The notes beneath the pieces are model-generated. The model did not search any database, was not told the origin of the DNA, and saw only the letters and a program-made list of their open reading frames with translations. A stretch of 64,000 nt of DNA from positions 20,720,169 to 20,784,168 of the forward strand of contig OZ316891.1 in NCBI GenBank assembly GCA_973895155.1, written 5' to 3'. This DNA comes from Marsupella aquatica. Its lineage: Eukaryota; Plantae; Marchantiophyta. Positions 5,017 through 56,254 of this stretch are shown here, in pieces (within the stretch, counting starts at the first letter, position 1; each line of letters opens with the position of its first letter). A program made the position numbers and the translations under genes.

Positions 5017-7670
5017 ATGCAGCAACAAATGGCTTCCTATGCGGGCACGACAATAACGACTGAGCTCATTCAAAAGGTGAGACTGGGCCCGCGAGTGAGA
5101 TTGTGTGCGTTTGTCGAGTTGGTTTACGGGCGAGTGCGTTTGTTGGAGGGAACAGTTTCGCGTGTATGGCGTGGTTTTAAAAATTTGACGTTGTACCTGA
5201 AGGTGTTCAGCTGGCCTCACGTATGCGTATGCGTTTGTGGTTGTGGTGTGTGTGTGTGTGTGGGTGGGTGTGTGTGTGTGTTTGGCAGTATTTGGACGAG
5301 AACAAACAACTCATCCTCGCTATTCTTGACAACCAAAACCTGGGGAAACTAAATGAGTGTGCCACGTAAGTAATGCGACTCTTTCTAAATAGGCTTTTAG
5401 TGTTCTTGCTTTCAAAAAAATTCGCTGTCTCTGTCTGCACGAGTTTGTTGCTGGGGAGAGGGAAAGGGGAAATGTTCCCAGCGGCTTTATGGTTGATGTT
5501 TTTATAGTGCAGGGAGGTTTCTCTCGTATAGAGGCTTGCACTGCGAAGTTCGAATGGATTATTTGTTTTCAGTATTGCCCTCTTCGGTTGAGTTCCGTCT
5601 CTTTGGGCTTAGTCAGCGATAGGGAAATAGCGCTGCCGTCATCTTAGTTTTGGCAGAAATTCTTACTTGGGGGCAAGGTCTTAGAGACGTTCTCGATGCG
5701 CAGGTATCAGGCAAAACTACAGCAAAACCTTATGTACTTGGCAGCTATTGCTGACGCACAGCCCCAAGGACCCCAGTCTTCGTCGCAGGTACCCATCCTG
5801 AACTCTGTTCATTTCTCGGTTTTAAACGTTTTAATAGTTGAACAAGTAAATGTATGATTGCTTGCTTTCCTGTTCTTCCTATCTTATTTTCTCCACCTGT
5901 GGACCAGTAGGTTAAGAATCTCACCCATCTGGCTCACCCCTATTTCTTTCATAATATTACTCTGGGCAGACACGGTGCAGTGTCTTGATGACGCCGAAGA
6001 GCAATCCAGTGTGAAAACAGTGTGACTCTGTTTGGAAGCTTGACAACTGAGTCAAATTCCTCTATCTGGAGATGGGCTTACGGGGTCTGTCAGTTAAATA
6101 AGCAAGTTGTCCACGTACCTGGACATCTTCTAAATCGACCAGGTTATCCGCCTAAACTGTTTTTAAATTCTGTGAAATAGTCCATGACATAGTCTCGAGG
6201 GTTGGTTTTTGGTCAAAATTTTGGAATACAGGTTGATCATGGCGGGTCTTTCGAATCTGCTTGACCTTAGCAATACTTTTGTACTGTTCAATGGAGTGAA
6301 GAGTAGCATCTTCAACATTGATCAAGCAGCTCAAGGTTGTCTACTCTCCGATCCTCTTCAACGTTCTGACCAGTCAGCTGCTTGTGGATGAGGAAGAAGT
6401 GGATCTGGGATTCAGGTGAGAAATATCACTATCCCAGCCCTTCTGGCCTTTAAGGAAGATTAAAAGGGCACTCATTTTCGGTAGTAAATAAAGCTTGCTT
6501 GCCAGCTTTGAGGCATACTATTGAATGAGTAACTCCATGCGTGGATTGAAACTGAACCAATCAGCTGCACAGTCAGTTGCTAGAGGTTGAGAGTTAAGGA
6601 AGTCCTCTCGTCTACCACTTGCTGCCAGATTAGGTATTCTAGGCTTTAAGTCTATCAAATACAGCATTCTGATCCCACCTCCTCCCACTTTTAAGGATCT
6701 TGTGGCTTTCCTTCGAAAGGCTTACGTACATACGCAGCTTGTATCCCGAAACTTCTATGCACTGTAGTCTCCCCTCCTACCGCTGTCCCTTCTGAACCAA
6801 AACTTTAGTTATGTCTTGAGCGATGCTTATAAACAACCTACCTTATGCCAGTATAAAGAGAACAGTCCTCTTGTGATAAGTTCCGGGTTTTCCATTCCAC
6901 AATTGCCCTCCAAAATATCCCTCTTGGCAGTGAGGGTTATCCATACCTCCATTGCGTGTCCGTCCCTCGTTGTAACTGGAAGAAAAATCATTTTCCGGGT
7001 CGTTCATGTTTCAGGAGTTAGCAATAGTTAGTTGAAGTCTTCACGTTTGATAAACATATTTTATTCTCCTTAGCTAGGATTATGTGCATAGGTGTTCAGG
7101 AGTAATGCATTGATGATGTTTGAGTATTTTCTTCGGTACTTCATGCTCTAATTTGGTTTGTAACGAAATGTTTCAATAAAATTGTCTCAGGCCACTGCTT
7201 CCAATGCGATGCCGGCGGCACAGCAGCAGTACATGCAGCAACAACAGCAGATGACTCACCAATCCATACTAGGACAACGGGGTGGGTCCGCGCAGTACCT
7301 TGGTCAAGGCCAAGGTTCTTCTCATCAGTCTGGGCAGCAGCAGCAGTCATTACATGGGCAGCAAGGGATGATCTCGGGTGGCAGTTCTGGACTACATATC
7401 ATGTCGGGTGAATCAGGGATGGGCGGGAATGGACCTCCTTCTGGTGGGTCTAGTTTTGGCGAGTATGGTCATGGAAAAGGTGGAGTTTCTAGAGAGGGAG
7501 CACTACAGCAAGGTGTCGTACTAAGGGGTGCCGGTGGAGGATCAGATATGCAAGGCCTGGGTGGCCATCAAGGTGGTAGGGAAGGAGGGAACTCTGGATC
7601 TGGGCATGGTCACGGTGGAGATGATTCAGAAGCCTCCTACCTAAAGGGATCGGACGAAGACGGTAATTAG
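5017..7670 (+). CDS. GIF: GRF-interacting factor (GIF/AN3-like, SSXT/SNH domain) transcriptional co-activator, 233 aa
   Basis: Exons 5017-5076, 5289-5365, 5704-5788 and 7191-7670, all GT-AG and in frame. Encodes ITTELIQK-YLDENKQLILAILDNQNLGKLNECAT-YQAKLQQNLMYLAAIADAQP, then a Q/G-rich tail ending YLKGSDEDGN. Confidence 0.95.
5246..5280. repeat. (GT)n microsatellite in GIF intron 1
   Basis: gtgtgtgtgtgtgtgtgggtgggtgtgtgtgtg directly before the acceptor. Confidence 0.85.
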
Positions 7671-9269
7671 GCAAGAACGTCGAAGCGAGGATTCTGGAGC
7701 AGACTGTAGTGATCACTGCTTAGCAAACTATTGTTTTTCAACGCTCCAACTGGGTTTGTTCATTTGGTGAACTAGATAGGATCAGTCAGGCAAAGCGAGA
7801 GGAAGCCCCAACAGGCCAATTTTTGTCCGTGGTAGTTTTCAATGAACGTGCACCACGTTGGGTTTGCAGCTGTGATTTGTGTCCAGGTGGCGCAGGTGGC
7901 CTACAGACTTCTGGATTGTTCCTGAATGACAGCCAACAAAATGTCTGGTGGTTTTTGACATAGTGGTTGGTGCCTTTCTGGGGTATCATTCACTGCATAC
8001 AGGAGTAGAACCAGGCAGGACAGTTAGTGGTGTATCTGTTGTATAAATCCTGTTACTGAACTCGGCTTAGGCCGCAGGGTGCGATTTTCCAACTCGGTGA
8101 AGGTTTAGGGCCCCTATAGGTCTATTTTTGATGTGATAGATTGGCCGAGCAATGTGACCACGATGTAATAGTTTTTCCAACCGCCACTAGGAAAGACGTC
8201 AGGATTCTAATTTTCATCTGCCTCGTCGGTTTTCTGGGAATTTTGTTGTTCAACGTGTATAGCAAACTTTTCTTTGTCAAAACAATGTGCTCAATGTAGT
8301 AAGAGATAAACAGCTCCACGGCAGCAGGACAAGTAGTTCTCGTCCTCTAGTATCGCATCCTTGATTTTCGTATGAATTTGTGAGACCTCAGCGTACGAAC
8401 TCGGTTTGCCCAAACCTTATCCTTCTGTTGACTGTGTTTTACGAACGATTAGATGTCAGACCAGCTCCAGGTTTCTGTTTTTTGAAATGCTTACATTGAG
8501 GCAGATATAATCATTCCGATTGCCTTCAAAGCTGATTCCCGTGTGAGCGAGGAGAAACCTCTTTCGTGGACTTCTGATTCAATCTCTGTAGTCCATTTCG
8601 TTTTTTCCACAGGGCTTAGGGGTGCTCAATTTATAAAGGCCTGAGTCAATCACTCAGTCCTTCCGTTGTACCCCATCAAAACGCTGGTAGTGGCCATGAT
8701 GAGTGAAGAATTTCGAAAGCACTGTTCTCGATTTGTGAGTGCAGGAACAGAGTGGTGATGACCACTCAACGAAGCACGTGCTCTTGCGGTGGACCTTTCG
8801 AAGACCGTGTCCAACAATGTAATCCCCCCGGCCTCGAGTAATGATTGATTCGCCAAATTCCACCTCCCCAAAAAGTGTTCGCCACTTTTGGCTAACATTC
8901 CCCAGATACTTTGTATTTCATTCCATTAGCCAGAATGATTCTTTGTATGTCATTCCATTAGCCAGAATGCTGCGGTCATCTGTAAATCTAGGGATATCTC
9001 TAGGGATATGTGATGGTCACTATATAATGCGTAAAAACTGACAATATAATGAGATATCTCTAGGGATATGTGATGGTCAGGATATAATGAGTAAAAACTG
9101 ACAGAATATTTCTAGAATCTCCCCTATTAGAGCTGCTGACATTTGCCACAGGGCCATTTGCCACTCTGCTAAAAACAAAAACCTTACAAATATGCTGGAC
9201 ACAGACATTTACTCGTGCAGCCGAAATGTTCAAACGCTCCAATTTGTCCAATGCTCTCTCACTGGCTTA

Positions 9270-9720
9270 TGTCATAATTCCTGTCACGAAGCAAGGTTAT
9301 CTTGTAACCTTTTCTACTAGGTGCCACTATTTCCATAACCCCCTCACGAAGCAAGGTTATCTTGTAACTTTTTCTACTAGGTGCCACTATTTCCATAATC
9401 CCCTGCCTAATGTCATAATTCCTGTCACGAACTGTGTGTAACCTTTTCTATTAGGTGCCACCATTTCCATAACCCTCCGCCTAGAAAATGTTCCAAGTAA
9501 TCTTTTATCCGGGCTACTAGGTGCCACCATTTCCATAACCCTCTGGCCAAAAAATGTTCCCGGTAATCTTTTATCCAGGCAGGAATTACGTATGTGCCAC
9601 CATTTCCATAACCCTCTGCCTAGAAAATGTTCCTGGTAATCTTTTATCCGGGCTACTAGGTGCCACCATTTCCATAACCCTTTGCCCAAAAAATGTTCCC
9701 GGTAATCTTTTATCCAGGCA
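9270..9720. repeat. Tandem repeat array with about 55-65-bp units
   Basis: About 6 copies of 'ggtgccac(c/t)atttccataaccc...aaaatgttcc.ggtaatcttttatcc'. Confidence 0.85.
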
Positions 9721-9734
9721 GGTATTAGGTATGA

Positions 9735-9868
9735 TAATGACGGCTTGGGCTGGGTTATTGTCTGAAACCTGTTCCCACAAAGCTCAGAAAAACTTCCCGC
9801 CGGTTAGCATTTCTTCACTTTCTGGTCACAGGGTTACAGACTAGTAACCCAAGACTAAGCCGTCATTA
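9735..9868. mobile_element. Small foldback/MITE-like element with imperfect ~45-bp inverted repeats
   Basis: 'taatgacggcttgggctgggttattgtctgaaacctgttccca' pairs with 'tggtcacagggttacagactagtaacccaagactaagccgtcatta'. Confidence 0.5.
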
Positions 9869-9960
9869 CCTTGTAAGTAATGCTCTCTCTGCACCGGCTT
9901 AAGGTTTTGTACAGTACCTTCTATTGCAGTTTCCCCCTCTCACAAGTTGACAGTACAATA

Positions 9961-10450
9961 CAGTCGGCCGTGCATAAGTGCATCCTGGATAAGTGCATTT
10001 TTCATGGCTAAGTGCAGGCTGGCCATGTAGCCCCCTAATATTACACCAATTTCCATTGTAAATACAACAAAAATGCAAACAGTTTGCATAAGTGCAGGTA
10101 GACCCTACCTTAGAGTCTCCTGATATTGTATAAGTGCAGTCAACATATAAGCTAGATGGTCCCCTCATATTGTCATAAACCAAATGGTCCCCTAATACTG
10201 TATTAGGGCAGGCTGGCCTTGGAGTAAATTTATAAGCCATACATTCCCATAATATTTTGCAAGTTTTGTTGTAAATGCCAAAAAAAAAAATCTTTGCATA
10301 AGTGTAGCAAAAAAATATGTACTTTGCATAAGTGCAGGTAGACTTCACTAAATGACATATATGGGCTCTTTGTATGCATATGTATACTTATGGACAGAAA
10401 TGCAGTTACTATGTTGTGCTTCCCAAATTTGTCCATATGTGTGACCTAAC
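9961..10450 (+). mobile_element. Non-autonomous DNA transposon end (Tc1/mariner/pogo-like) with repeated ATAAGTGCA subterminal motifs
   Basis: TA followed by CAGTCGGCCGTGCATAAGTG, with many ATAAGTGCA copies. A homologous inverted copy ends at 31060. Confidence 0.5.
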
Positions 10451-10689
10451 AACATAAGGGAAAGTGCATACGCAATTCCCCATGCACACAATGCTGTCCA
10501 GTGCACTTAAAACACAGTGCACACCACAGATAAGTTTCAGGTTTGGGATGTCTTCTTGGGAGCCTACACTTAGACACAACAGACTGCATATGAAGTATCC
10601 ACTCTCAAAGTGCACACCCCCAGGAAGGAGTATACAGACAGTGTGCACACTTGTGTTGAGTCTAAGAGCATTGAACGGGGCTGAATGAC

Positions 10690-11180
10690 CATGAACTGAG
10701 ACCAGAGCAAAGAAACGAAAGGAACAAGCACTAAATTGAAAACTTTAGAGCGCTATCTAAACCAAACTTTAGAGTTCACTTGTGCACTGAATCAAAATGA
10801 GTGAGCATTGAGAGCAGGCCAAGCAAGCACTCAATGAGAGCTGAGCACAAATGACCAAACACTGAATGGAAGTTGAGATGGCACCAACTCAGAGCACTAA
10901 ATGAGAGCAAAAATGAGAGCACTCAACAAGAACCGAGCATTGAATGAGAGTTAAAAACAAGAGCTAGCTAAAAATGAGAACCACAGATAGCAAGCACTGA
11001 GACGAGAACACTAAACCAAAGCCAAACACTAACAATCAAGCACTGAATGAGAGCTGAGATAGCACTCAGTGAGAGCAGGGGATGAGGACCAAAAATGAGA
11101 GCATTGGAAGAGAACTGAAAACAAGAGCCAAAAAAAGAGCCAAAAATGAGAGCATTGGAAGAGAGCTGAAAACAAGACCT
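10690..11180. repeat. Degenerate tandem repeat ('gagcactgaatgagagc' / 'aaaatgagagca')
   Basis: Numerous imperfect short copies. Confidence 0.55.
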
Positions 11181-11534
11181 TTTTTAATGTAGATTTTTTA
11201 ATATCTCTAGCCTGACTACCTGTTCTTTTGATTGTAAATATAGGTGAGTACCAAAAAGCCTTGCAAGAAAAACATTCTTGACACATACTCATTGATGATT
11301 TGTCCCCATTCCCTGCACCTCCAAAGTTAAGTGACACAAGTAGAGTTAAGGTCTATAGGATTCACTCCAGACCTTGGCCATAAAAGTATGTTTCTATTGT
11401 GATATACTAGTAAGATGTACCCCCCAATCTCCTGCCTCGAATACCCTCCTTGCTTACTTTAAGCATAGACAAATCATTACAGGACAAAATAACTTTTCAT
11501 GTTCAAGGATGAGAGTGCTATATTTTGAAATAAG

Positions 11535-12010
11535 TTTTACTAGGTTAACCCCCAAACTGAGCGTTATTACAGACCGGATATTTTTATTATTACACTACCC
11601 CAAATAGTATATGAGTGCCCATAATCCTGCCATGGTAGTGCCTGGTTGGTCCAAAGCGTGAAACCCCAATGTGACTGAGGTATGCTTGTGGAGTGTGATT
11701 TGAGTGTCCCCAGGACAGCAGCATGTCACATTCTCCATGTTTTTTGAAAGAAAGACAAGCCAACGGGGTGCAGCGTGCTGGGGAGGCACTGGGTGGATGT
11801 TTCATGGGCGATGCCCAAGTAGGAGTGACCAGACTGAGGGGAGCGGGGTGAATTAGGCTAACCCAGTTGGATGACCAATTAGGTGCTCTAGTGAGCAGAA
11901 ATATGCGTAACTTAGACTTGTATACTATTTGGGGGGCAGCATAGTAATAAAAATAGATTGGGGGTCAGGTGTGTAATAAGCGCTCACTTTGGGGGTTCAC
12001 TCACTAAAAA
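11535..12010. mobile_element. MITE/foldback-like element with imperfect ~70-bp TIRs
   Basis: 11543-11611 'ggttaacccccaaactgagcgttattaca...ccccaaatagtata' is inverse to 11921-12000 'tatactatttgggggg...tgtaataagcgctcactttgggggttcac'. Flanked by an imperfect direct repeat 'gct(a/g)tattttgaaat(a/c)ag'. Confidence 0.55.
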
Positions 12011-12059
12011 GCTGTATTTTGAAATCAGTTTCAAAACATTTGTGTGTTATCTTTAGTGG

Positions 12060-12560
12060 CATCAGTTGTTTACTAACCTGTCCCCCAAATTACCCAGTGT
12101 TATTGACTTGCCCCAAACAAAATTAATTATCAACCCCCCCCCCCCCCATTTCATATTCGGGTTAGTATTAACTTGTACATGGGTTCCCATTGCCATGAGG
12201 CAAGTTGCTACTGGCTAGCCTCAACCTGCCGTGAGCCCCTTCAGCCTTCCCCTTCCCCGTTGCAGGACACAGTCGCAAGTGTGGGAGGGGTGAAAACTCA
12301 CCATTTTTTCCCGGCTTCCTAAAAGAAACCCTACTCTTTCGGCCCTCATTGTTACTCAGGAAAACGCAGCAGGGAAGGGGGACCAAGGGTAGTCACTGTG
12401 GGCTAGCCAGTAGCAACTTGCCACATCGCAATGAGAACTCGTATATGAATTAATAGTATCCCAAACACAAAATGAAAGGTAGGTTGATAATTAATTTTGT
12501 TTAGGGGACACTTCACTAATAGGCGGTAGTTTGGGGGACAGGTTAGGAAAAAGTTGCTAG
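12060..12560. mobile_element. Long-TIR (Mutator-like) non-autonomous element
   Basis: Arms at about 12073-12220 and 12401-12546 are inverse: 'ctaacctgtcccccaaa'/'tttgggggacaggttag', 'aaacaaaattaattatcaac'/'gttgataattaattttgttt', 'gcaagttgctactggctagcc'/'ggctagccagtagcaacttgc'. Confidence 0.6.
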
Positions 12561-12729
12561 TGGCATTCCAATGTAAAAAGTTGTTAGTATGTAAAAGTGA
12601 CACACGGCTAATGAGCGGTAGTTTGGGGGACAGGTTAGGTTAGTAAAAAGTTGTTAGTGGCATTCCCATGCAAAAAGTTGTTAGTATGTATCAAAGTGAC
12701 ACATGGCAAAAGTGCCAAACCTGGAGACA

Positions 12730-12963
12730 GGGTCCCAAAGGCAAAACAACCCAACCCAATAAAGGGAAGGAAACAAAAGGGGTGCCAAAGCCAAAACAAC
12801 CCAATAAAGGGAAGGAAACAAAAGGGGTCCCAAAGCCAAAACAACCCAATAAAGGGAAGGAAACAAAAGGGGTCCCAAGGCCAAAACAACACAATAAAGG
12901 GAAGGAAACAAAAGGGGTCCCAAAGGCAAAACAACCCAATAAAGGGAAGGAAACAAAAGGGGG
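12730..12963. repeat. Minisatellite with ~39-bp unit, about 5-6 copies
   Basis: Unit 'ggggtcccaaaggcaaaacaacccaataaagggaaggaaacaaa'. Explains the repetitive ORFs in all frames here. Confidence 0.9.
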
Positions 12964-13089
12964 AAGGGACTCAAGAAGACCCAAGTTGTTAATGGCATTC
13001 CAATTTGAAAGAAGGAAGTCAGTCACTACCGTACCCGTCTTGTAACGCCACACAGAGGTTTACAGTAAAGTTGTAGGAGCACGAGATTG

Positions 13090-13530
13090 AGCCCAGCAAG
13101 GAGGCTTTGCTTTCGCCCAAGAAGAACTTAAATTTCTTTGCCAGGAAATAAATTATCTGCACGAGTGGAAACGGCGGATTTTTTCATGCTGGGGCTGAAG
13201 CTGGGGCTGAGCTTTAGCTTACGGAGGTAGCAACAGAATCAGCCGAGCAACGAGGCTTTGCTTTCGGTCAAGCGGAGCTCAATTACAACGAGGCTTTGCT
13301 TTCAGTCAAGAGGAGCTCAATTTCTTCTCCAGCAAATAAATGAGCTGCAGGAGTGGAAACGGGCGGGATTGTGCGTGCTGGGGCTCAGCTTCAGCTTAAT
13401 TACAGAGGTAGCAACAGAATCAGCCCAGCAACGAGGCTTTGCTTTTGGCCAAGAAGGAATTAGCAGAGCAGAGCAGAGCAGAGTTGCTTTCGGCCAAGAA
13501 GGAATTAGCAGAGCAGAGCAGAGCAGGGGT
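13090..13530 (+). repeat. Local tandem duplications in the presumed RPC17 promoter/5' leader
   Basis: 'gcaacgaggctttgctttcg', 'gagtggaaacgg', 'ggaggtagcaacagaatcagcc' and 'ggccaagaaggaattagcagagcagagcagagc' each recur. Confidence 0.7.
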
Positions 13531-14611
13531 TGCGAGTCTGTTATTATTTCGTTGGAGCTGTTGGTGTTGGAGAAAGCCGCGGTTTCTGCTTCGATCGTCG
13601 GTACTCTTCTCGGATCCGATGCAGCGCGGCAGACAGCTGCCATCCAGGTGCGGATCTCGATCGAAGGCCATACCGAGTGCTGTTTGAGAGATTCTGAGAA
13701 TTTTTTTACCCCCCGTTTTTCGATGTTTGCCGGTGTTCGTATCGACTGTAGTAGAAAGTGGTCATTCAAGAGAAGGTGTTCTGTGGTCTGCGTGACGAAA
13801 TGCTTGATCTAGAATGTATGGCGTCGTCATCGGTTATATAAATATCTCCTTGTCGCTACGTTTCTGCAGTCTGTATGGCCCGTTCTTACTGTATCATGAA
13901 AATTGGTTGTACGAGTGTTTTTCTGGAAGACGCTGAAACTATGCACGCCTTGGAAGCTTCAGAGGTAGAACTGAGGTCCTGTGTAGTTCTCTCGAGATTG
14001 TGGTGGAGGTGTGCACGTAGAATGAAGGCTGCTTCAGTTGAAATTTGACGATCTAAAAGCCAATGGGTGCATGTTAGTTTTTTTCCATGGTTCCGTCCCA
14101 AGAAGTGAAAGCAACTTATTTGGTGTCGGTTGCTGTAGTCGTATTGTGGCGTTTGGGTCTATGGATTTGCTGTTGTTCGGAGTTCCTGGGCTCTACTTTT
14201 ATAGTTTGTCGATGCAACTATGTACGAGCTGAGGTGTCCTTTTTCTTTCCTTCGTCAATTATTTCGTCAGCATGGATTGGCTATCTGAGATGTTTGTCTA
14301 CTTTCTGTCGCTGTTGTACAAGTTATCACATGTTTGGTATATTCAGACCTAAGCTTGTAGCCCCTTGTGAGCCTCACATCCTAACATCCGGTTAATCACC
14401 TATGATGTATTAGTCCCGGCACCATGAGACGCTCTGTTTCCCTGGGTCACCTGGCAAACTCTCTCTGCGGACGGACAGACGGAAGGAAGGAAGGAACGAA
14501 CTATTTCTCGTCTAAGAGCCCTTACAGCATGGGAATATTGGAGATCTTCAATTCACTTACGTAAGCAGAAATGCTTAGTCTGAGCCCAATTTTTTCCAAT
14601 TTTGTCGACAG

Positions 14612-17600
14612 ATTGGAGGCTAACGCCGGGTTGCTGTCAAATTTCGAAGTGAGGGATTTGTTACTCAAACGTGGAGCTGACAAGGGCCCTCTTGGTGGCT
14701 CGATAACAGTTGGGGAGTGCAAGGTTGCTCTCTCCGACATATCTGTAGTTTTTCCTTCAATCTCTTCACTTCACAGCTCTAACTTTTCTGTCTCTGTCTG
14801 TGAATTCATAGTGATTCAAAACCATGTGGTTCCTTTGAGTCGCATGGCTGGACCCTATCAGTGATTTGGCCAATTGCGGCTTTGAGGCTTTAAATTCATT
14901 TCAATTGAATGTTAGTACTCCTGGGAGTCAGGTTAGAAAGGTGGAGATTCCGATTTCGCTAGGACCCACAATTCAGCTTACGATTTTGTGATCTAATCCA
15001 TTTGACCAAGTGAAGAACAAATATACTCTTGGCAGCCTGCCAAAGTTCCTTGCACCCATCTTCATTTGAGTCTCTCCACATGAGCCCGTCATCTCTCCGA
15101 ATATGCAACCTCTTTTAGGACGAAGCTGTTAAGACGGTACATCCAATATATACGTACTTGTCAATGGCTGAACAGTATCGCAACGAATATCCTCCGAAGA
15201 AGTATTTACAGTACCTGTCTTGGTTACGAGAGGCCACGTCATGATGGGTGGCTGAGCTTTAGCATATTGATAGGATCTGGAAATAGAGCAGAGGAAATGG
15301 GTGCTGAAACATATGAGGGGAAGTTGATTGATGAATTTGAGGAGAATCACGCGGGGCGGCGTTTGGTTTTGGAGTACCCCATATCACAAAGCACAAGAAT
15401 TCAGGTAGTGGTGCTTGATTCTGCTGACACACTGGGAGTTGAATTTATTATGAAATGTGCTGCTATGCTGGTTCCTTCCGGGCAGGAGATGGATTGGATG
15501 TATTCGTCAGAGGGAGGACAGTGGCAGCTGCTAGCCTCTGCTGGCGTGAGCAGGTTGATCCTCTTTTCGAGGAGCTATAACATAGTGCACTCTGATAAAA
15601 AGGGAAAGCGTATACATAGACATGATAATTACGGTCACGAAAAGAGAATGGATCAGCATAATGAATCAAGAGGCAGAAGATCGAAGAAAATGGAAGAGCT
15701 ACAGCGAACAAACAAATTGTCTGGTCCGACAAACCTGCCAACAGCAGTACCAGAAGATGAGGTATTAAAGCACTTGCTAGGTCCTCTTGTTCTTGCTCTT
15801 GCCCCTAAGGTTACTTTCGATACTGGGGTTCCCAGCATTCCTTTCGTGTGCTATAATGACAATGTAGTGCAACGGGTGTTGGTGGAGGAAGCCTTGTCTC
15901 CAGTGACAGGCTTGATGAAGGTTGAAGATGTCGAGGTGGAGAGTGAAAGTTCTGATTTGGAAGCAAAAGCCATCCAGCAGAACCACTTTGTAGGAGTTTT
16001 CAACGAAGAAGAATCTTCCCAGCTTAAATTGAAGAAACACACAAAGTCATGGAGACGGAGGCTGATTTTCAGGCGGATGCCTAATTTGATTCAGACAGAG
16101 GTCCTTCTTACGATACAACCTTGTGATAACAAGAGAAAAGTCTTACACAAAGGGAGGGAAAGTGACGATAGCGGGAGAAGGTTTCTTAAACATACGACCA
16201 ACCTGAAGCAAGAGCACCTGGACCACATGAACCTTGAGCGAGTAGTGAGGCAGGTCGATCATAGTAGGTTGGTGCACAAGTACCTGCCCCCCATAATAGC
16301 TGGGTTTGTGCTGGTAGCCCCACGCTTGGATGCCTGCTTAGTGTGTGATCCAGGCCGTGCACGAGTTCTTTCCATTGGGGTTGGAGGAGGTGCTTTACCA
16401 ATCTTTTTGCAGCAACATTTTCGATTCCACATTCAGGTAATATTCAGCATTTGGTACAAGACCAAAAGGCAAAGAGCGTATGCAACTATGGAATTTTATG
16501 TGTCCGTCACGATTTTGTCGAGTCATGGGCCGAAGCACTTGACATACTTGACTTTTGTCTCTCTGTGCAGGCAATTGACTTGGATGCGGGGGTCCTTCGA
16601 CTTGCTAGAAAGCACTTTGGGTTGACAGAAGGTACCCATTTCCAAGTGGCTGTAGGGGACGGTTTAACTGTTGTTGAGGAAATCGCGGCAAGGGTCATAA
16701 AGGAGGGTATTGTAGATGAAGGACTCAAGGATTCTTGGACCTCTTGTGTACCCATTGGTGAATCTACCGTATTTTCTTCTCCACATGGCCCCTGGTCTTC
16801 TACAGAGAATCTGGGACTGTCTGCGGGGCCATCTCGTCAGGAAGATGACTTGAACGAAGGTTCCTGTAATATCTATGGTCATCTCAGGAAGAGTAAGGAA
16901 AGTCTTGTAGAAGGCGTGGAGGAGAGTTTCCTGGTGTGCTCGCCAGAAGCTTCAGATAAAGTACACAACCTGACGCGGGATCCATATTTTACATGTCAAT
17001 CGGAAGTCTCATCATCCTCAAAACCGAACTCCTCCCGTCATAAACAATATCAATCTGATCCTCGAGTGGAGCTTATAATCCTGGATGTAGATGTGGGTGA
17101 CGCTCGGTTGGGTCTCAGCTCTCCTCCCCAATCTTTTCTCGAGCGGAGATTTCTCCTTTCAGCAAGAATTGCCCTACAAAAAGGGGGCATGCTAGCTATG
17201 AACGTGGTGCCGTGTGGGGAGAAACCTTTTGCAGCTGTCGTCGAATCCTTGCGACATGTGTTTACTGAAATTTATGAAATAGCATTGGAAGATGATGTGA
17301 ATCATGTGGTTTTTGCCCTTCCAGGTCCGGCCTCCTTGAATCATCACCTTCTCAATAGTCACACAGTTGAACAAGTCAAGAAAGTGGTAGGTGAGAAGAT
17401 GATTCAACACATTCGGCGGTTGGACAACGTTTCAAGCAATGAGTGAGCTGAAGACCATTCTGGTTAAGGAAGAAAGATGTTGCTTCTTCATCTACAGTAC
17501 GCATGGCCAATGTCCTATCGTGCAATGTTAACGCCATGTGGATAAGCGGTCTCTACAGAATTGGATCCCACTTGTAACTTTGAGTATATGAGCCTACACG

Positions 17601-18654
17601 AATGTCAGGGGTAGAGGTGAACGGATGGAAAGTGGCAGGTTGTGGGAAGCCGTTATACTCCGGTCCCTCTTGAGGAGCATTTTCTTTGCCAAATATGTTG
17701 TCAGAACGCGCTCTTCACTTGGGTATAATGTTCACTCGAGAGCATCCAGTACGGAAGGGAACATATTTTACTCAGTGATTGGATGACATATTTCCCTACT
17801 TCTTGATTCTCCACAAATGTTTGAGAATCTCAGAGGTCACCGTCCACAAGGGCCTTCTTTGCTTGTGGACGCTGTTTTTTGTGGTCCACCAGCTGATACT
17901 TTGTACCTAGTCCTCTGCCAAACGTGCCCGAGAAACCAAGCCTGCCAATGTTTGGACTGATCGAGTCACACATTCCTGTTTATCACTTGGGAGGGCGGTT
18001 GAACCGATGGAACGCCCTTACTCGCACTACGTAGCGATATCAAGCTCTATGTTGTTGTTTGTGGTTCAACACAGATGGGTGAGAGAACTCTGAGCCAAAA
18101 ATGTTCTGTTTCATGTGGCTGAAGGTTTGTTTGGCTCTAAGAGAAAATGAATGGTCTATTTCTCAGGTTTATGAATATTTGGTAGAAACTCCTGCTGGGA
18201 CACAGACAAAGACAAGCATAGAAGAGTTTGTGACCGGAGTGAAGTCTTTCAGACTGACAGATGCAGAGAAATTGCAGTCTATTAATCTACGACCTGCCAC
18301 TGCAGTTGAAGTTCACTTGGTAAAACACAAATTTCTTCCAGTCTTTGTTCGTTTGACTACTTTTCTTCGCCTTGACCCGAGTGTCTTGACTTTCCCAAGT
18401 TGTCGCTTGCTAAAGTTATGTTAGAGGTTTCTTACCCTTACAGGTGCCCCTCCCCCTCGATCTGTGTGCAGATTGTGGAGGATTGTGACGAACGTCTCTC
18501 AACTTCACAAGTGGAACGATTTATTGGAACAGTCACGGAAACCCTTCCAGAACCTCCGTTGAAGCCTGAAGCTGAAGCTGAAGGTGAAGAGGAGGAGATG
18601 GAGGAAGCGAATCCCGATAGCGAGGAAAAAACAGAGCAAGTACCAGACGAATAA
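14612..18654 (+). CDS. RPC17: RNA polymerase III subunit RPC17/RPC9 (CRCP, Rpb4 family). First micro-exon with the start codon is unresolved.
   Basis: Exons 14612-14723 (LEANAGLLSNFEVRDLL...ECK), 18167-18319 (VYEYLVETPAG...AEKLQSINLRPATAVEVHL) and 18472-18654 (IVEDCDERL...acidic tail). Junctions are GT-AG and in frame. Confidence 0.9.
15297..17446 (+). CDS. SAM-dependent methyltransferase resembling the eEF1A-KNMT/METTL13 C-terminal (spermidine-synthase-like) domain, about 671 aa, nested in an RPC17 intron
   Basis: Exons 15297-16436 and 16571-17446 (CAG|GTAATA...TGCAG|GCA). Motifs: VVVLDS, LVPSGQEMDWMYSSEGGQWQL, RRLIFRRMPNLIQTEV, VLSIGVGGGALPIFL, GDGL, LIILDVD, GGMLAMNV. Confidence 0.9.
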
Positions 18655-21600
18655 AAGCAGATTACAATGATGCTACTCCTGACTGATAGGTTGTCGTCGC
18701 TAGACTGACTGTTATTGTCACCCTGTTATGTCATCGCGGGCCACATGTTCGTAACGAACTGTGACCCAAGTCACGAGATGCAATTTTGAGGGACACAACT
18801 TGTGTGTAATGGGTGATTTAGCTCACCGTATTAGTTGCACAAATCTCGCACAATAGTTTAGTGATTTGGTCACCTTGTTGGATCAAAGGCTCAGAGTAGA
18901 CCAAATTGCAATGCAATCTGATAAAATGAAGTCTTGCATGGGTTTCAAGCTTACAAAACAACAGGTACTAGGCAGAATTCTCCTTCCGGTCAACAACTTA
19001 AATATTATGTCGCAAAGTACTTGAAGTTGACTAGCATGTGTGCTTCTTAGGTGTCCCCGTATTGGCTTTCTGCCTGATGTCTTGGATAGAAATCTTACCT
19101 ACAAAAGCAACAATAGTTCCTTCACACAGATGATGACCTTTAAGTGTAACAAACTCCTATTTCCAGAGCATTTTGGGCAATAATAGCCCCTTAAAACTTG
19201 AGCAGAATATCCCACAATGTCTTGTAAACCCGACTTAACTATAAACTTGATGCCCTTTGTGCTTTTTCTCTTTGTAATTTTCAGGGCATTATTTTATGGA
19301 GGAGAATGCGCACTCAAGATTTGGATGAACTCATTATGAAGGTTTTCTCTATTTTACTAAGAGAAGTCTATAGGCTTGAAAGTGTATTAAAGTGCTGTTA
19401 TTAGAGTATTATGGCAAATAATAGCCCTCCCAAACTGGAGCTGAAAGCTCTCAATTGTTGGGGCATTATTTAACGGCATTATTTAATGGCACACAATGCA
19501 GCTCTAAACAAGACTTCACTGTATGCTTTGTGTAACCAGGACTTATGTAACCAGGACTTACTAATATACTTGCCTGTGTACTAATATACTTGCCTGTGTA
19601 TCAGTGCAGGCAAGTACCCCCATGGAAATCTCATTCCAAAATACTTGGAAGCACAAAATCCCTGGAAGCACGTGCAACCACATAAGCACTATTGGTCACA
19701 AACAAGAACTATTAGTTATGCTAAAATATTCATGTTTGAAACAAAGCAAAGAAAAACAATGGAAAACTGGAAAGTAACACTTCAAATAAACAAAAATAAG
19801 GAAAATAGGGGTCATTGATATATTAGTGTTTTCTGGTAAATTGATTGAATTTTCAATTTGATTCATTGGCAAACATTTCAAATAGCCATAGGTAGAAAGT
19901 ATTTTCAGCTTTTATGGTTAACATAAGAAACTCTGGACAAAGGAATACCAAGAGAATGTAAGAAACCACTATGGACAAAGGAATACCAAGAGAATGTAAG
20001 AAACCCTCCCGTTACCATGGGAATATCAACAGAAGGTAAGATACCCCTTGGCTACTTTAACAGTTTGCATGGACTCTATGGAATGTCATAAGGCCTCTGT
20101 AGACATAGGAATACCAAGGGAAAATTCTGCTTGTTATCATGAAATAGTCTCCTCTTTATGTCCTCTCATTTCCATACTCAACCTTATTCCAGTATGCAAC
20201 TTTTCAACACTCCATTCTCAGCACTCCAATGTGTTGATGAACATGAAACTCGCAGGGTTAAATAACTTCCTTCTCAAGTACTGTAGTTTTCTAAATTTGC
20301 ATCTGAGGTGTATTTTGCTCTACAAGGCTCTTCAGTTTGCCCACGGGTAGGCTTTAGGCTTCTGGTTTTAGGTCTGCTGCTTCTCTTTTGTTTCCTTGCC
20401 TTTCTTGGCCCTTTGGTTGTCCCCTCTTGATGGGGTCCTTTGACTGAGGGATCATGTCTCCCCGTTGGACACCATTTGTCTTTTGGCAGTCTGATATATA
20501 TTTGAGGTACTGAAAAATGATTTGTCTTTTGGTAGTGTGATATATATTTGAGGTAGTGAAAAATGATGCTTGGATAGACCCCTAGGTTTGTAAGATTGTC
20601 AATTAGTCTTTTTGTCTAAGGTCCATGGGAGCATCATTTTCGAGGCAGTGTGAAATGTATCTGAGGTGTATTCAGCATTAATTTTCGCGGGGATGTGTTC
20701 AAAAAGACGGAGAGGCTTCGCTTTCAAAATGCTCTGAAGTACGCGCCTCGAGAGCCTCAAGAGCTCAGCTGGTTTCTCTACTCGTCCTGCTCGAATCGGA
20801 GCTGCCACACTTTGAATCGATGCGGCCTCCCTCCGAATCGAAGCGGCCACACGCGAATCGAAGTTGCCATCGCCGTTCTCAAAAACCTGGGAGCAGAGCT
20901 GCTAAGGTCCAGAGGAATAGCATGGTAGCCAGTTGGATGTCATGATGCCAATTCGACCGACATTTCGCTCGCTGGGGATAATAACTTGACGCTTGCAATG
21001 TCGATTGTTACTGATATGGTGGGATTTCAGGTATGGGATCTTCGTAGCACTACCATTCACTACTCTGTCGTTCACGCGCTCTCTCAAATTGCCGTGACTG
21101 GAGATTGGACTCGATTGGAAGACGAGCAGTGGCTGGATCCTTCCCTGCCCAGCGCAGCACAGCAGAGGGTAGGATGATGGCTCCGGTCTGTATCATTAGG
21201 GACGGAAGGAGGTGATCCGACGGATTGAAGGGCGTTGGAGTGGAATTTCGTCGAGGTGTTTGTCGATAGTGAGTGAGTAGACTGCTTGTTGATCTTCTTC
21301 ACTGGCACTCTCTTCACCACTGACTCTTTTCTTGAGTCTGAAATTGTCATTTGGACGGACCCCTGGGATCTACCTGTGAACGAAGAACGTTTTGTCGATT
21401 TGATGGAGAGGGGTCATAGCGTTTGAGGAATATGTCTGGTCGGATTCTGTCTGTGAGTCGTCTTAGCTTGAGCCTTGATTCTTTCGTCCTCTTAGTCAAC
21501 CTCATGGATATATTGTTTGCCTTGTTCCCAAGCTGGACAACTGCAAACCGCTGGAAGACAAGCTTGAATCGGCCTTTTGCGTCGAAGCAGTTTGTCCTGT

Positions 21601-22075: not shown

Positions 22076-23806
22076 ATGACTGGAGGGTGCATCTGCGCAA
22101 TATGTTATGAAGATGTGGACCCTGCCAGCGAGCTTCTGCAGTCCATTGCCCTCTGCGGCCATGTATTTCACGAGCTCTGCTTGCAGCAGTGGATCGAATT
22201 CTGCCCAAATGGTCGCGCACCCACTTGCCCTCTATGCAAACAGCACTGTGGTGTCAAAGATGTTCATCGTCTTTACTTCCAGTCGGATTCCTCTCTGGTA
22301 AAGAAGGATGTCACTCATGAACCCTGCCAGAAGAATCTATCGGAGAGAGAGCTTTCCCAGGAGGACCAAGTGAAACTCTGCAGGTTGGAGGCGAAGGTGA
22401 CAATGCTCACAGCAGAATGCAAGGCCTCGAGGGAGAAACTATCGACGGCTGAAACCGAGGGACACAGACATTTGGAGCAGGTGAAAGTGCTTGAAACAGA
22501 GAAATCAAAATGGAGGAAAGACAAAGGCCTACTTGCTCAATCAATTGCCAGAACTCAAGAGGAGCTTAGGAAAACCGTACAGCAAAGAGAGGAATTGTTA
22601 AAGAAGACAGAGGCAATGGCTAATGACGTTGCTGCGTACAGGTTGGCTACTGATGTGAACCTGACTGAGGTTGACATGTCTAGGCTCATTTCTCCTGCTA
22701 GCCGTTCTGCCAGTAAAGATGACGTCATTGATATGATGACGAAGACCCTCTTTCTCCAGAACAGGGCATTCAAGGATCTCATGCACAAGTGCCAAGAACT
22801 GGGGATGGGGGAATCTCGAGCTGAACAAAAGTCCCAGAAGCTGACCGAGCAAGTCAGGCGCATGAAGGCACGGATACAGGAGATGGCCAAAGCCGAAGAG
22901 GAGAAGGAGAATGCAAAAGTGAGATCTCTAACCAGAACTAGAATTTCTGCCGAGACAAACATGAGGCCAGAATTATCCCTAAATGATGCGCATTCTGCCC
23001 AGCTGGCCAATGCCACCGAAAACATTCCCTTGCTATCTCGTCCTCATTCGAAGAAAAAGAAAGTTGGCGACAGCAAGGAGGCAGCAAGTCTGCCTCTAAC
23101 TCCTGTGGCTCCCAATGTCATCTGTCTCGATGGTGATAGTGAAGCATCAGAAGCAGAAGCTCAAAGAGCAAAGGTGAACAGGCAGGGGTGGGTTGCCGGC
23201 TTCTCGGAAATCGTGCCTGCAACTCATGACTGTGACGAGGAGTTTACCTTGAGTAAGAAAAATCAGAATAGTCTCAGTCGACCTGATTGTGCAACAATTC
23301 AGAGTTTGGAGCCTTATTCCCAGTCGTTTGGTGAGGAGACTCAGGAGGACTTTGCTCTAAGAACAACGCTGAGACAATGTGCTGACGAGGGAGAAGATGT
23401 AGGATCTTCTCGGTCTAAAGTAAAACCCAAGCTGACTATCGGTTTGGATGGAGATATTGATGATGTAGATGCCCTCAGACGGAGGCCAATGTTGCCCATT
23501 AGGCAGGAATTGGGTCTTGGACAGGGAGCAACATCCTTCACGCGACCCCAATCTGCGACGGGCTTCCAGATGCCTGCAACAACGGACCAAGCAGTTCCTC
23601 CTTCCGAAAGCAAATTCATTCTGTCAGGGGCTGATGGTCGCGGTGGCAGGGTTAGAGTTTTGAAGCCTCCTAGGCTTGTTCCTGGAGGTGGAAGTAGCAG
23701 CAGTGTCTGGGGAGCGATGCGTGGAAAGCGATTCAAACCCACCTCTCACATTGGTGGTGCAAGGTCGTCATCGTTGAAAATTGAGCATTTTTTTGGACGA
23801 GGATGA
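22076..23806 (+). CDS. TRAIP: TRAIP-like RING-H2 E3 ubiquitin ligase with coiled coil, 576 aa, single coding exon
   Basis: N-terminal CAICYED...CGHVFHELCLQQW...CPLCKQ...RLYFQS, a long coiled coil, conserved GADGRGGRVRVL, and a C-terminal PIP-box-like LKIEHFF. Confidence 0.85.
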   Translation: MTGGCICAICYEDVDPASELLQSIALCGHVFHELCLQQWIEFCPNGRAPTCPLCKQHCGVKDVHRLYFQSDSSLVKKDVTHEPCQKNLSERELSQEDQVKLCRLEAKVTMLTAECKASREKLSTAETEGHRHLEQVKVLETEKSKWRKDKGLLAQSIARTQEELRKTVQQREELLKKTEAMANDVAAYRLATDVNLTEVDMSRLISPASRSASKDDVIDMMTKTLFLQNRAFKDLMHKCQELGMGESRAEQKSQKLTEQVRRMKARIQEMAKAEEEKENAKVRSLTRTRISAETNMRPELSLNDAHSAQLANATENIPLLSRPHSKKKKVGDSKEAASLPLTPVAPNVICLDGDSEASEAEAQRAKVNRQGWVAGFSEIVPATHDCDEEFTLSKKNQNSLSRPDCATIQSLEPYSQSFGEETQEDFALRTTLRQCADEGEDVGSSRSKVKPKLTIGLDGDIDDVDALRRRPMLPIRQELGLGQGATSFTRPQSATGFQMPATTDQAVPPSESKFILSGADGRGGRVRVLKPPRLVPGGGSSSSVWGAMRGKRFKPTSHIGGARSSSLKIEHFFGRG

Positions 23807-24523: not shown

Positions 24524-25860
24524 TCAATTGTATGGCCTCGTCGGATCAGAATTCGATTCAGAAACCAACTGCTCCCGCTTCGAAGTAAACTGACCACCAC
24601 ATCATAACGAATCATGCATCAGGACAGAACCCAATTCTGAAATCAATCTTGTCTAGAGCTTGAAATTAGAAGCTAACTGGAACTCAACACACAGCGCAAT
24701 CCCCAGACTGTTTCGCTGTCACCATCTACGACACCAGCTGCTATCCAACGTCGTCACACTCTGTTGGTTCTCCCAAATCCCGAATAGATTAACTACTCAA
24801 GCCGTGAGGAAAGAGATAAAACCAGGATGTAAAAAGGAAGCCAAATTTCACCTTCTCTAGAGTCATACGCACGGCATCTCGTCCCACGACAACCAGTCTA
24901 GCAATCTGCACCAAATAAAAGCGTATTTCAGGAATTTGGAAGGGGCTCAATGAATAAAATGAGAAACCCTATCAAGAGTGCAATTGTACACAAACAATGT
25001 TCCTATTGGAATCAATATTTCTTCATGCTCCCAACCTAGCAACTTACTGAGAGTGGGAGACCTACCAAAATGACGACAAAGACTTCACGTGTTGGCAAAG
25101 TGACAAGTTGGCAAGAAGGAACGAACCGTCTCCGGGTCTTTCTCGAATTTTGCAGCCTCAAACTCTCTTCGTGCACTCAGCCTCAGCATATCCTTCCTGC
25201 ACCAGGCGCCTTGATGCTTTAGCTCCAAGCCTCCAGCTCGCAGCGGTCTATCAAATGAGACAATGAGGAACCACAAACACAGAGAGAACCTAGCTTCCTC
25301 CTCCAACCCTAGTCGCTAGGAAAAATCAAGGTTGGCTGCAGCTACGAAGCTTTCTATACCGAAGTCATGTCTCCTAAGACAGCAACCCTCGCATATTCGA
25401 CACTGTGGAATTACAGGTGGATGCAAATTTTTCTAAACACATTGCAATCACTGGGTGAGGAGTGAACGGCCCTGCTGAAGAAACTGAACATCTGTGACCC
25501 TTAAACAAATTGGATGGCCTTGCATCAGAGTGCCCTCAACAATCACAAACCCAATTGACATCAGAGCCGATTCAACCAATCTAACACAGAATGAATTCCA
25601 GCAGCGTACCAGGGGATGCCTTCCTCGTTAGCCCAAGTAAACACTCGAGTAGCACGCCAGATATCTCGGTAGAGGGACAAAACTTCACGGCGGGTGGTTG
25701 TGATACCGATGAGAGGAGACGACGTTCTGGTCGGGGCCAAGTGCTTGTCCAGAAACTCTTCCACGGGAATCTCGTCGGATGTCAACAGCCGACGGCCGCA
25801 CGCTGCTGCCGGAAGAGTCATGTTCATAATCTGGCCCCTCGCCCGCAACTTCAACCACAT
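24524..25860 (-). CDS. CIAF1: Mitochondrial LYR-motif protein, CIAF1-like complex I assembly factor, 146 aa
   Basis: Exons (minus) 25860-25610, 25196-25127, 24905-24852 and 24589-24524, GT-AG and in frame. Encodes TTRREVLSLYRDIWRATRVFTW...W-KDMLRLSARREFEAAKFEKDPET-IARLVVVGRDAV, with an Arg-rich N-terminal presequence-like start. Confidence 0.85.
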
Positions 25861-25898
25861 TTTGTGTCTTCTCTCTATCAGTGACCAGTTTAACTCAA

Positions 25899-26245
25899 AG
25901 CTTACTTCGGATTTCTGAAACCCAATGTCGACGGAAGATATCGATCTCCAGCACAGCCACCAGAAATTCACTCCGCTTTGGAAGTAGCTTACTTCTGATT
26001 TCTCAAACCCAATGTCGCCGAAAGTTATCGATCTTCAGCACAGCCACCCGAACTTCACGCCGCTTTGGAAATAGCTTACTTCTGATTTCTGAAACCCAAT
26101 ATTGTCGACGAAAGATATCGAGCGTCAGCACAGACACCACAAATTCACTCCGCTTTGGAAGTAGCTTACTTCTGATTTCTCAAACCCAATCGCCGAAAGA
26201 TATCGATCTTCAGGACCGCCACCAGAAATTCACGACGCTTTGAAG
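25899..26245. repeat. Four tandem ~87-bp units immediately upstream of the CIAF1-like start codon
   Basis: Unit 'agcttacttctgatttct(g/c)aaacccaat...aagatatcgatc..cagcacagccacc.gaa.ttcac..cgctttggaa' starts at about 25899, 25986, 26073 and 26163. Confidence 0.9.
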
Positions 26246-27342: not shown

Positions 27343-29564
27343 TTTTTTAATTTTTAAAAGGGGGAGCGCAGGGCCCATCAATAACACGCACAGGGACGAA
27401 AGCCACCCAGAAGAAAACAAAGGGGCCCAACACCCGGGCCAGAGACCCCAGAAAAACCAACCCTAGTCAGGCCAGAGAGCCCAACACCACCACCACAGAT
27501 TCTCCACCCTGGAGATCCTGGAATGCAGCAAACTACACTTCTCCTTTCCATCTCTATGAATCCTATGTTTTCTCGTATTACCCCTAAGATGACACTTATC
27601 ATTGGTGTCCTCATTGAGAGGCTTCCAGTCATGATTACTCTCCTGGCTACTACCCCTCTTGTGATTCTCGCTCTTGCGAGCGCAATGCCAACCAATATGT
27701 CCTGCACACTTAAGGTGTTGGCTACAAACACAAAAAAAACATCCTGTCAGTCATCATTATCGGATGCAGATTGAACGTGGGCTCTCCACAGTCTCCCAGG
27801 GTTGGAGAACCACTTGGAGTTGACTGATAGCTTTCCTCAGTTGTCTCCATTTGTTTTCTGATCTGTTGACATCAAGCATGGCAAGAAGATGCTTGGCGGT
27901 TTGCCGTAATACCACCCATCCCGGGAGTCTCCCCAGGAATTGTGTGTATGTGGCAGTGTTTCTCGCCTTCCAAATGCTTGAGCACATCTCCGTAATTAAA
28001 ACAAGGGGGCCAGGTCTCCTCTTGTGCCTCTTGATAGCAGTATAGATGTTATCATAAAGGGATCTTGTGTCAATCTGCATCGCGTCCAACCCTTGCAATA
28101 GAGTGCGCACCTCTCTCCACCGGTTTTGAACCGTGCTGCAGCTGAAAAACATATGTTCAGTAGTTTTGAGTTGCAGCTTGCATTTCGTGCACTGTCCGTC
28201 AAACACTCCTCAAGTGTGAGCCCTTCTATTGTTGACAAAACCGTGGTGTAGCAGCCTCCACATGTAGAACCTCACTTTCAGGAAAGACCATCCTCTCCAA
28301 ATTTTGCTCCAAATCTGCTTCCATTGATGAAGAGTATTGGTCTGTCCCCATTGTCGGTTAAGTTTTGTAACATCAATCATAGGCTTTACTTCGCATTGTC
28401 TCCAAGTTTTGATAGGAAAGGTCCACCCTCTGTTCATGCCCTTCCAATCCCACACCCATCTGCTGCAGCTTTGTAGGTTTGAGGGGGAAGGGCCAGATCC
28501 CTGTCTCAGTTGTCTATAAAATTCACGGAACGCAACATCTCCAGTCTGTTGCTATGAATGGTTTGAAGGATATCCGCCGTATTAGTCCACTCTCCTTGTT
28601 TTGTCTTGAGATCCCTGAGGTTCTTGATGGCTCGATTGGCAAGGAACAGTCTTAGATCAATATCTTCTTGCTCCGTCATGTCCCCGTCCCATAGGAAAAG
28701 TAGCACGGTCCGTTTGATGGACAGGTGATTTGGCAGTATGCTAACCCCAAAATGGAATTTCAGAAACCTACTCTTCTCAAACCACCCATTAATCAGATCT
28801 TGCAAAGTTGGTGACCTTTGTATTGTCATCCTGTTGCTCAACAGGATAGCTTCCATGGGTGTCCACCGCCTTCGTTCTTTTTTGCCAGCCCCAAAATTCA
28901 ATCCTTTGTGAATGATCTCGTTCGCCATTTGCACCCAATCCCGGTTCTCTCCTGTGAAAATCTTAGAGATATATCTTATCTTGAGCAGCTTGGCTTGTTC
29001 CTGAAAGGCCAGCAATCCCAGACCCCCTTCTCCTTTATGTCAGTAATTACCTGCCAGGCGATCAACACTTTCTTGTATGCGTTGTGGTCTCCCTTTCCCC
29101 ACAGAAACCCTCTGTAGATTTTTTCCATTTCCTTGTATCCAATCTTGTACAACACCATCGACGTAAGGTGGTAGGTAGGGATAGTACGCAGAACGTGCTT
29201 GAGAAGGACAGATCTCCCCGCCATCGTCAAGCTTATGTTAGTCCAGTGATTCAGCCGACCTCTTAACTTCCCCAACAAAAAAGCGGCTTCGTGAGATGGA
29301 CACATTTTAAATCCAATTGGGCAACCAAGATACTCAGTGAGTTCGCCTATTCTTGCGATCTTGCACCCAGTGCTGTGCAGCCAGTTCGGGTACAACCCTT
29401 CTGGGAGGTAAATAGGTATAATCTTTGATTTCTGCAAGTTCAGTAGAGCACCTGAAATGTTCTCGCACTGTTGGACCACCTCTCTAGCTGTCCGGAATTC
29501 ATTTTCAGTTGTAGCGAGGAAAAGACCAGTGTCGTCAGCAAAAAGTTGGTGGCACAGGCTGTCC
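27343..29564 (-). mobile_element. 5'-truncated, frameshifted L1-like LINE (RT C-terminus plus zf-RVT)
   Basis: 15-bp TSD TTGTAACCATTCTCT (27328-27342 and 29565-29579) and an A-rich tail. Peptides HQLFADDTGLF, SGALLNLQKS, EYLGCPIG, GRSVLLKHVL and CTKC...TTEHMFFSC. Confidence 0.93.

Positions 29565-56221: not shown

Positions 56222-56254
<33 letters not shown>

Follow-up and report, generated by a model that had tools for sequence, protein, structure and literature searches.

A methyltransferase gene nested in an RPC17 intron of the liverwort Marsupella aquatica and a putative splicing choice between two mRNAs

How can an intact gene be expressed from inside an intron of an unrelated gene that is read in the same direction? 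The question is raised by a stretch of 64,000 nucleotides from the liverwort Marsupella aquatica (contig OZ316891.1, positions 20,720,169 to 20,784,168; hereafter the window), in which a two-exon methyltransferase gene (15297–17446 of the window) lies within intron 2 of the gene for RPC17, a subunit of RNA polymerase III (Pol III). Our analysis suggests that the locus is probably one transcription unit, from which competing splice donors produce two mutually exclusive mRNAs, one for RPC17 and one for the methyltransferase.

The RPC17 coding sequence (CDS) is made up of four segments (Table 1) that join into an open frame of 158 amino acids, the last three being connected in frame with GT..AG intron ends. 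Between exons 2 and 3, on the same strand, the methyltransferase CDS is open over 671 codons. An earlier note made from the letters of the window had described this arrangement, a complete same-strand methyltransferase between RPC17 exons that join in frame, and had stated that no alternative upstream RPC17 exon follows it. Both statements hold: a tblastn search of the 64-kb window with 11 plant RPC17 queries gave clear matches only at exons 2, 3 and 4 and no second copy of exon 2. The exon map of the note was correct for these three exons, while exon 1 (donor 13647) and an 88-nt intron at 18079–18166 had been overlooked. Exon 2 agrees with the Calypogeia fissa model CAM6089086.1 in 36 of 37 residues, and exon 3 matches Pfam PF03874 (E 1.9e-7). 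A profile of close RPC17 relatives retrieved the Pol III stalk subunit in the PDB (7A6H chain D, E 2e-26), all 4 PDB matches being this Pol III subunit. With its PF03874 domain the window protein is nearer to RPC9 than to Rpb4, and its relatives carry the name RPC9.

The nested layout is real and is conserved across several liverwort species. Eight sequencing runs were listed, of which four were compared with the window (X4, X5, X7 and X8 were left out). In run X1, which may be the source sample, a single contig covers 14352–19292 with 0 differences. In run X3, from organism B and another study, one contig spans 13956–19128 (141 differences, 37 gaps) and supports the assembly on which the earlier note depended. 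In C. fissa, the models CAM6089085.1 (the enzyme) and CAM6089086.1 (RPC17 exons 1–2 reading on into the intron) have consecutive accessions and equally long contigs, and a further gene model, CAM6095527.1, fuses the enzyme to RPC17 exons 3–4 (96/111 identical). The layout is conserved in organism B and in both C. fissa copies; the C. fissa models retrieved present RPC17 only as a fragment and as a fusion.

Evidence on transcripts comes from run X6 (organism C, about 91% alike to the window), which consists of contigs only and was taken as RNA by guess, because its contigs skip GT..AG introns, no listed run being recorded as RNA. Aligned alone on 14390–19120, X6 gave 17 contigs with 10 joints, and this joint table is complete. 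Four of the joints are of the GT..AG type, namely 14723>18167 (70 letters on the short side), 16436>16571 (132 letters), 18319>18472 (153 letters, in two contigs) and 18078>18167 (30 letters, in one contig). The first two are the junctions by which the earlier note had proposed to recognize the arrangement. A single contig of 1065 letters covers 17110–17472 and 17539–18077, that is, the end of the methyltransferase CDS, the stop and the 3' untranslated region (UTR), and then passes over the 88-nt intron to RPC17 exon 3. The joint 18078>18167 therefore suggests that the methyltransferase message runs on into RPC17 exons 3–4 and does not end in the intron. At the other end, a contig is unbroken over 14697–16328, from inside RPC17 exon 2 (27 letters) across the donor into the methyltransferase CDS. 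Its start at 14697 lies 30 letters ahead of the point where the spliced and unspliced paths diverge (both begin GTT), as expected of a branch in a contig graph; if the graph was built with k=31, which we take to be the case, the 30- and 27-letter links have the lengths expected at branch points. Three short introns farther downstream are skipped by X6 contigs, whereas 14724–15296 is retained, and this stretch therefore does not look like background DNA.

In the contigs of this one run, acceptor 18167 is used by two donors, 14723 and 18078, so that a given molecule would either be the RPC17 mRNA or keep the methyltransferase CDS. The depths of the X6 contigs (99, 45, 34 and 24) were not used for ranking isoforms. 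The earlier note had argued that production of RPC17 mRNA must skip the splice sites and the poly(A) signal of the nested gene, and had proposed a mutually exclusive splicing/polyadenylation switch. The skipping of the whole unit (14723>18167) and the splicing choice stand. The polyadenylation part finds no support: the 3' UTR contig continues by splicing into exon 3, and a scan of 17447–18078 for four poly(A)-like hexamers found none, a weak negative given that plant signals are loose. The locus thus appears to make a splicing choice with shared exons and not to face a problem of reading through a poly(A) site. A second organism is also present in X6; its methyltransferase contig is about 81% alike to the window, and its RPC17 5' end has the usual Met-Lys-Val form.

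The placement of RPC17 exon 1 depends on an X6 contig whose 30-letter loose end before 14609 resembles window 13615–13644 in 28/30 letters (by eye); from this match we place the exon 1 donor at 13647 and the ATG at 13619, with 158 amino acids as the resulting length. Like RPC17/RPC9/CRCP proteins, the window gene has the exon 3 family match (PF03874) and a full-length 158-aa frame; unlike the relatives P0108, P0109 and P0162, which start with Met-Lys-Val or Met-Gln-Val, it has a longer N-terminus from exon 1 (9 codons + 2 bases). The RPC17 start is seemingly shifted within 13619–13649, as the Met-Lys-Val or Met-Gln-Val of relatives sits directly before exon 2. Where exon 1 ends, the window shows an Ile-Gln-Val-like run of codons, but the junction of the relative corresponds to a donor two bases earlier and an ATG farther upstream. 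High-copy repeats at 13200–14350 and 19200–19300 overlap exon 1 and intron 1 as well as the sequence downstream of the gene; they are matched by many contigs in all four compared runs, of which X6 matches only the 5' ones.

Table 1 Features of the RPC17/methyltransferase locus (window coordinates)
Feature	Position	Strand	Remarks
RPC17 exon 1, coding part	13619–13647	+	ATG 13619 in weak context; donor at 13648; phase 2
RPC17 intron 1	13648–14611	+	964 nt; mostly high-copy repeat
RPC17 exon 2	14612–14723	+	downstream intron begins GTTGCT; use or skipping of the donor is the putative switch
RPC17 intron 2	14724–18166	+	3443 nt; GT..AG; spliced out whole in RPC17 mRNA
Putative 5' leader	14724–15296	+	573 nt; same X6 contig as methyltransferase CDS; 8 ATGs; first ~45–60 nt unusually conserved
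Methyltransferase CDS exon 1	15297–16436	+	380 codons; contains motif I
Methyltransferase intron	16437–16570	+	134 nt; phase 0; X6 joint with 132 letters on short side
Methyltransferase CDS exon 2	16571–17446	+	291 codons + stop; Post I, DG, Post II and Asn647-equivalent positions
Methyltransferase 3' UTR up to second donor	17447–18078	+	intron after it begins GTGAGA
Intron joining methyltransferase 3' UTR to RPC17 exon 3	18079–18166	+	88 nt; GT..AG; acceptor 18167 common to long intron
RPC17 exon 3	18167–18319	+	coding in RPC17 mRNA, putative 3' UTR in methyltransferase mRNA; PF03874 match
RPC17 exon 4 and shared 3' UTR	18472–18998	+	CDS until 18654; contig alignment of relative stops at 18998; joint 18319>18472 in 2 contigs

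We picture the single unit as follows. For the RPC17 mRNA, the exon-2 donor at 14723 would be joined to acceptor 18167. The methyltransferase mRNA would start at the RPC17 promoter and carry exons 1–2; donor 14723 would be skipped and only the two short introns 16437–16570 and 18079–18166 removed. Past the skipped donor, the RPC17 frame stays open as far as a stop that ends at 14864, which makes a 93-codon upstream open reading frame (ORF). Counted from ATG 13619, the leader would be 714 nt long with 9 upstream ATGs, none of them opening a frame that overlaps the main start at 15297. By the established start-context rule, 15297, with purines at −3 and +4, provides the strong context, and 13619, with C at both positions, a weak one. 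A ribosome would first meet the weak RPC17 start with its truncated frame and then 8 more ATGs, and translation from 15297 would need leaky scanning or re-initiation. Downstream, RPC17 exons 3–4 would serve as 3' UTR, which would then measure at least 1312 nt and contain two splice junctions, at distances of 632 and 785 nt from the stop. In moss, junctions in the 3' UTR predict nonsense-mediated decay (NMD), according to PMC6009662, and the methyltransferase mRNA is thus predicted to be NMD-sensitive.

The sequence directly after the exon-2 donor also drew our attention. Within the first 59 bases of intron 2 there is 1 listed X6 substitution against 6.6 expected (P ~0.01, with a boundary picked post hoc); of the substitution table 40 of 465 rows are listed, and those for 14724–15105 are assumed to be complete. 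The C. fissa read-through retains 13 of 17 residues (13 of the first 15), compared with 79% for the enzyme overall and 54–64% in its variable linker. The scarcity of substitutions and the conserved read-through together point to selection on the sequence just past the donor, as an RNA element or as a peptide. A HMMER search with exon 2 plus read-through against 1.84 billion representatives gave 9 matches, none with the full read-through and mostly to long proteins in several short stretches, and is uninformative on how widely the layout occurs.

Several observations weigh against a single unit read from the RPC17 promoter. All transcript evidence stems from contigs of one run of a relative about 91% alike, the status of which as RNA was guessed, and contigs reveal no start site, single molecule or expression level. 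The links to exon 3 (30 letters) and exon 2 (27 letters) fall just below the 31-letter bridge rule of the tool. A leader of 714 nt that contains 9 upstream ATGs lends itself poorly to scanning and favours a start site closer to 15297. ATGs are not depleted in 14724–15296 (8 versus 10.7 in shuffled sequences, of which 18% of 1000 contained no more than 8), and substitutions in the relative alter 2 of the 5 leader ATGs checked. As to the predicted decay, PMC6009662 reports junctions to be weaker triggers of NMD when they are distant, and retained introns to be predictors against it. Part of this would be accommodated if the methyltransferase had its own promoter early in the intron and had just the two final exons and the poly(A) site in common with RPC17; the link between exon 2 and the intron would then reflect pre-mRNA that is spliced slowly, or a minor isoform that is non-productive. 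With a short leader the problem of upstream ATGs would disappear and their lack of depletion would fit, an internal start would not interrupt a contig, the exon-2 link spans just 27 letters, and a C/T-rich tract at 14727–14800 could be a core promoter element of the Y-patch type. The continuity of the contig from exon 2 to 16328, although contigs skip short introns, speaks against such a promoter. The same direction is indicated by the methyltransferase contig of the second organism in X6, where 632 unaligned letters upstream of 15329 would reach about 14697 (by arithmetic only), and, with little weight, by the lack of a TATA-like heptamer on the plus strand of 14724–15296. We hold this intronic promoter to be a serious but somewhat unlikely alternative.

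If the nested gene were entirely independent, starting from a promoter of its own and ending at an intronic poly(A) site through which RPC17 transcription has to read, a model close to that of the earlier note, the joint 18078>18167 would be a minor read-through product. Since contigs cannot show ends, a poly(A) site at 17.5–18 kb would be compatible with the data, and the joint depends on one contig; this sole contig over the 3' UTR reaches a GT donor, however, and from there joins exon 3 by splicing, and with the hexamer result we judge full independence to be very unlikely. Still less probable is a functional fusion protein, either of the enzyme with the C-terminal half of RPC17, as in CAM6095527.1, or of the RPC17 N-terminus with half of the enzyme. 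The relevant junctions are all phase 0, so that 14723>16571 and 16436>18167 would be in frame, and the window has a donor at 17386 matching that of the C. fissa model, with 6/9 letters of the consensus. Neither these cross-joins nor the join of the C. fissa model are among the 10 joints of X6, in which contigs drop rare forms, and the other C. fissa copy is modelled unfused with the same C-terminus as the window protein. An in-frame fusion at the N-terminus of the whole enzyme was rejected: the host frame stops at 14864, 0 of 7 YAG acceptors in 15084–15296 are in frame, and the contig is unbroken over 14697–16328. In favour of a misassembly, X1 may be the source sample; an independent contig of organism B spans the unit and the C. 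fissa models agree, on which grounds it was rejected. A dead gene copy would be at odds with two frames that are intact, conserved and spliced in X6. We assign a negligible probability to both.

Which enzyme would the second mRNA encode? Among 93 matches from 5497 candidates, its closest relative is C. fissa CAM6089085.1, with 528 of 671 residues identical. The best sequence match in the PDB is 5WCJ, the C-terminal domain of human METTL13 (MT13-C), with E 3e-27 for a 12-sequence family profile and E 1.4e-10 for the window exon 2; the predicted model of the C. fissa orthologue (mean pLDDT, a score of model confidence, 62) also has 5WCJ as best fold match (E 2e-11). Residues were numbered by mapping with an offset of 451 on the 5WCJ chain, and the key residues were taken from PMC6109062. 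The window enzyme shares the MT13-C fold and conserves the positions matching Gly503, Asp551-Gly552, Asp575, Asp577 and Asn647, while Glu524 is replaced by Asp. It further differs from METTL13 in the absence of the lysine methyltransferase domain MT13-N: no Pfam methyltransferase match was found in exon 1 or in P0001, and the PDB matches cover the MT13-C-like part only. Relatives of the window enzyme begin at the same conserved block, and in the C. fissa model a long low-confidence insert (pLDDT <50 at 448–536) divides the domain. Judged from sequence and model, the enzyme would work like MT13-C without being a full METTL13, and it is predicted to be an S-adenosylmethionine-dependent protein N-terminal methyltransferase. 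The earlier suggestion of a putative translation-factor methyltransferase fits with this resemblance to the domain of METTL13 that methylates the N-terminus of eEF1A.

The two genes lie apart in 8/8 other land plants, as judged from locus tags and the size of contigs. In Marchantia polymorpha they are AXG93_154s1020 and AXG93_1862s1170, in Ceratodon they share a chromosome with distant tags (11G020600 and 11G091500), and the remaining species are M. paleacea, Riccia fluitans, R. sorocarpa, Sphagnum magellanicum, Diphasiastrum and Ceratopteris. The earlier note had suggested examining other bryophytes, and nesting recurs in C. fissa but not in Marchantia, Riccia, Ceratodon or Sphagnum magellanicum. 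RPC17 exons were present in 0/16 metagenome loci of the enzyme (5 Sphagnum-like and 11 legume-like, three of them <5 kb), the only matches being 29% identical (E 0.09–0.16) and within the enzyme match. The methyltransferase intron is at the same codon in 5/5 Sphagnum-like loci, on which ground a retrogene origin was rejected; in the set L001–L016, the intron is kept in the Sphagnum-like loci, and one uninterrupted frame is seen in L009 and L016, the two legume-like loci printed. Gene-caller fragments of other plants (P0161, P0169 and P0176) break RPC17 at the same intron-2 position. The simplest reading would be a move at the DNA level, in which, once the leafy-liverwort line had split from Marchantia and Riccia, an intact genomic copy of an old two-exon gene was inserted in that line into an RPC17 intron that was itself old. 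The layout may be an accident confined to one lineage. A separate oddity is the R. sorocarpa model P0110 (R1sor_011115), which fuses a second RPC17 copy to a HIUase/transthyretin domain (PF00576) and may reflect a true fusion, a true neighbour or two genes merged in annotation.

If the single unit with two mRNAs holds, the locus would be an example from plants in which one spliced unit gives rise to two housekeeping proteins, both conserved and unrelated to each other, a layout known mainly from animals, with the added twist that coding exons of the host double as untranslated regions of the guest. It would also be a natural setting in which to ask how the splicing machinery of a liverwort takes out a 3.4-kb intron that contains two short ones, the phase-0 sites of which could lead to in-frame chimeras, and how translation and escape from NMD are achieved for an mRNA that has 9 upstream ATGs and two junctions in its 3' UTR. 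The layout may serve as a dateable marker for a leafy-liverwort clade, and in practice it breaks annotation, as with the C. fissa RPC17 split into fragment and fusion. A bolder version, which we consider doubtful, would have leafy liverworts obtain their sole copy of the methyltransferase from an isoform of RPC17, with the first exons as a conserved upstream ORF, the last exons as an NMD-marking 3' UTR and the selected element past the exon-2 donor setting the ratio, in effect a reciprocal switch between a Pol III subunit and an enzyme modifying a translation factor.

Elsewhere in the window, a single long ORF at 22076–23806 (+) encodes a RING-finger protein (Pfam) followed by a charged, probably coiled-coil region, which we take to be TRAIP-like. 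A retrotransposon with in-frame stops (RVT_2), presumably of the Copia type, occupies 45021–49302 (+), and broken reverse transcriptase fragments at 27757–29611 (−; weak RVT_1) are presumably LINE-like. Further features are a LYR-motif exon at 25561–26034 (−; weak), RNA-helicase exons at 33549–35773 (+; Helicase_C) and a PADRE-domain ORF at 55680–56732 (+).

In the literature searched, mostly open papers without supplements, we found no plant case and no account of the window locus, which a bryophyte genome paper may report. Looser parallels come from animals. The H-DBAS nested loci (PMC1716722) are single loci whose isoforms with common exons encode unrelated proteins; they are animal loci, whereas the window locus is from a plant and would use host coding exons as upstream ORF and 3' UTR. 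Human CPNE1/RBM12 (PMC2568002) are same-strand genes without coding similarity that have common 5' exons and presumably a common promoter. There the common exons carry no coding sequence, and a poly(A) signal of its own is discussed as the end of the shorter gene, while the putatively common 5' exons of the window code for the host and the 3' exons are common too. The nearest known system is the insect pair Su(var)3-9/eIF2gamma (PMC1435931, PMC4528330): there, too, a methyltransferase unit sits in a conserved intron of an unrelated same-strand housekeeping gene, splicing gives either product, and the arrangement is limited to one lineage and thought to be accidental. The insect proteins share 79–84 N-terminal residues in frame. 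The window pair, in contrast, has no common coding frame, with the host stop at 14864 and no in-frame acceptor upstream of 15297, and its guest transcript appears to rejoin the coding exons of the host, which would serve as its 3' UTR.

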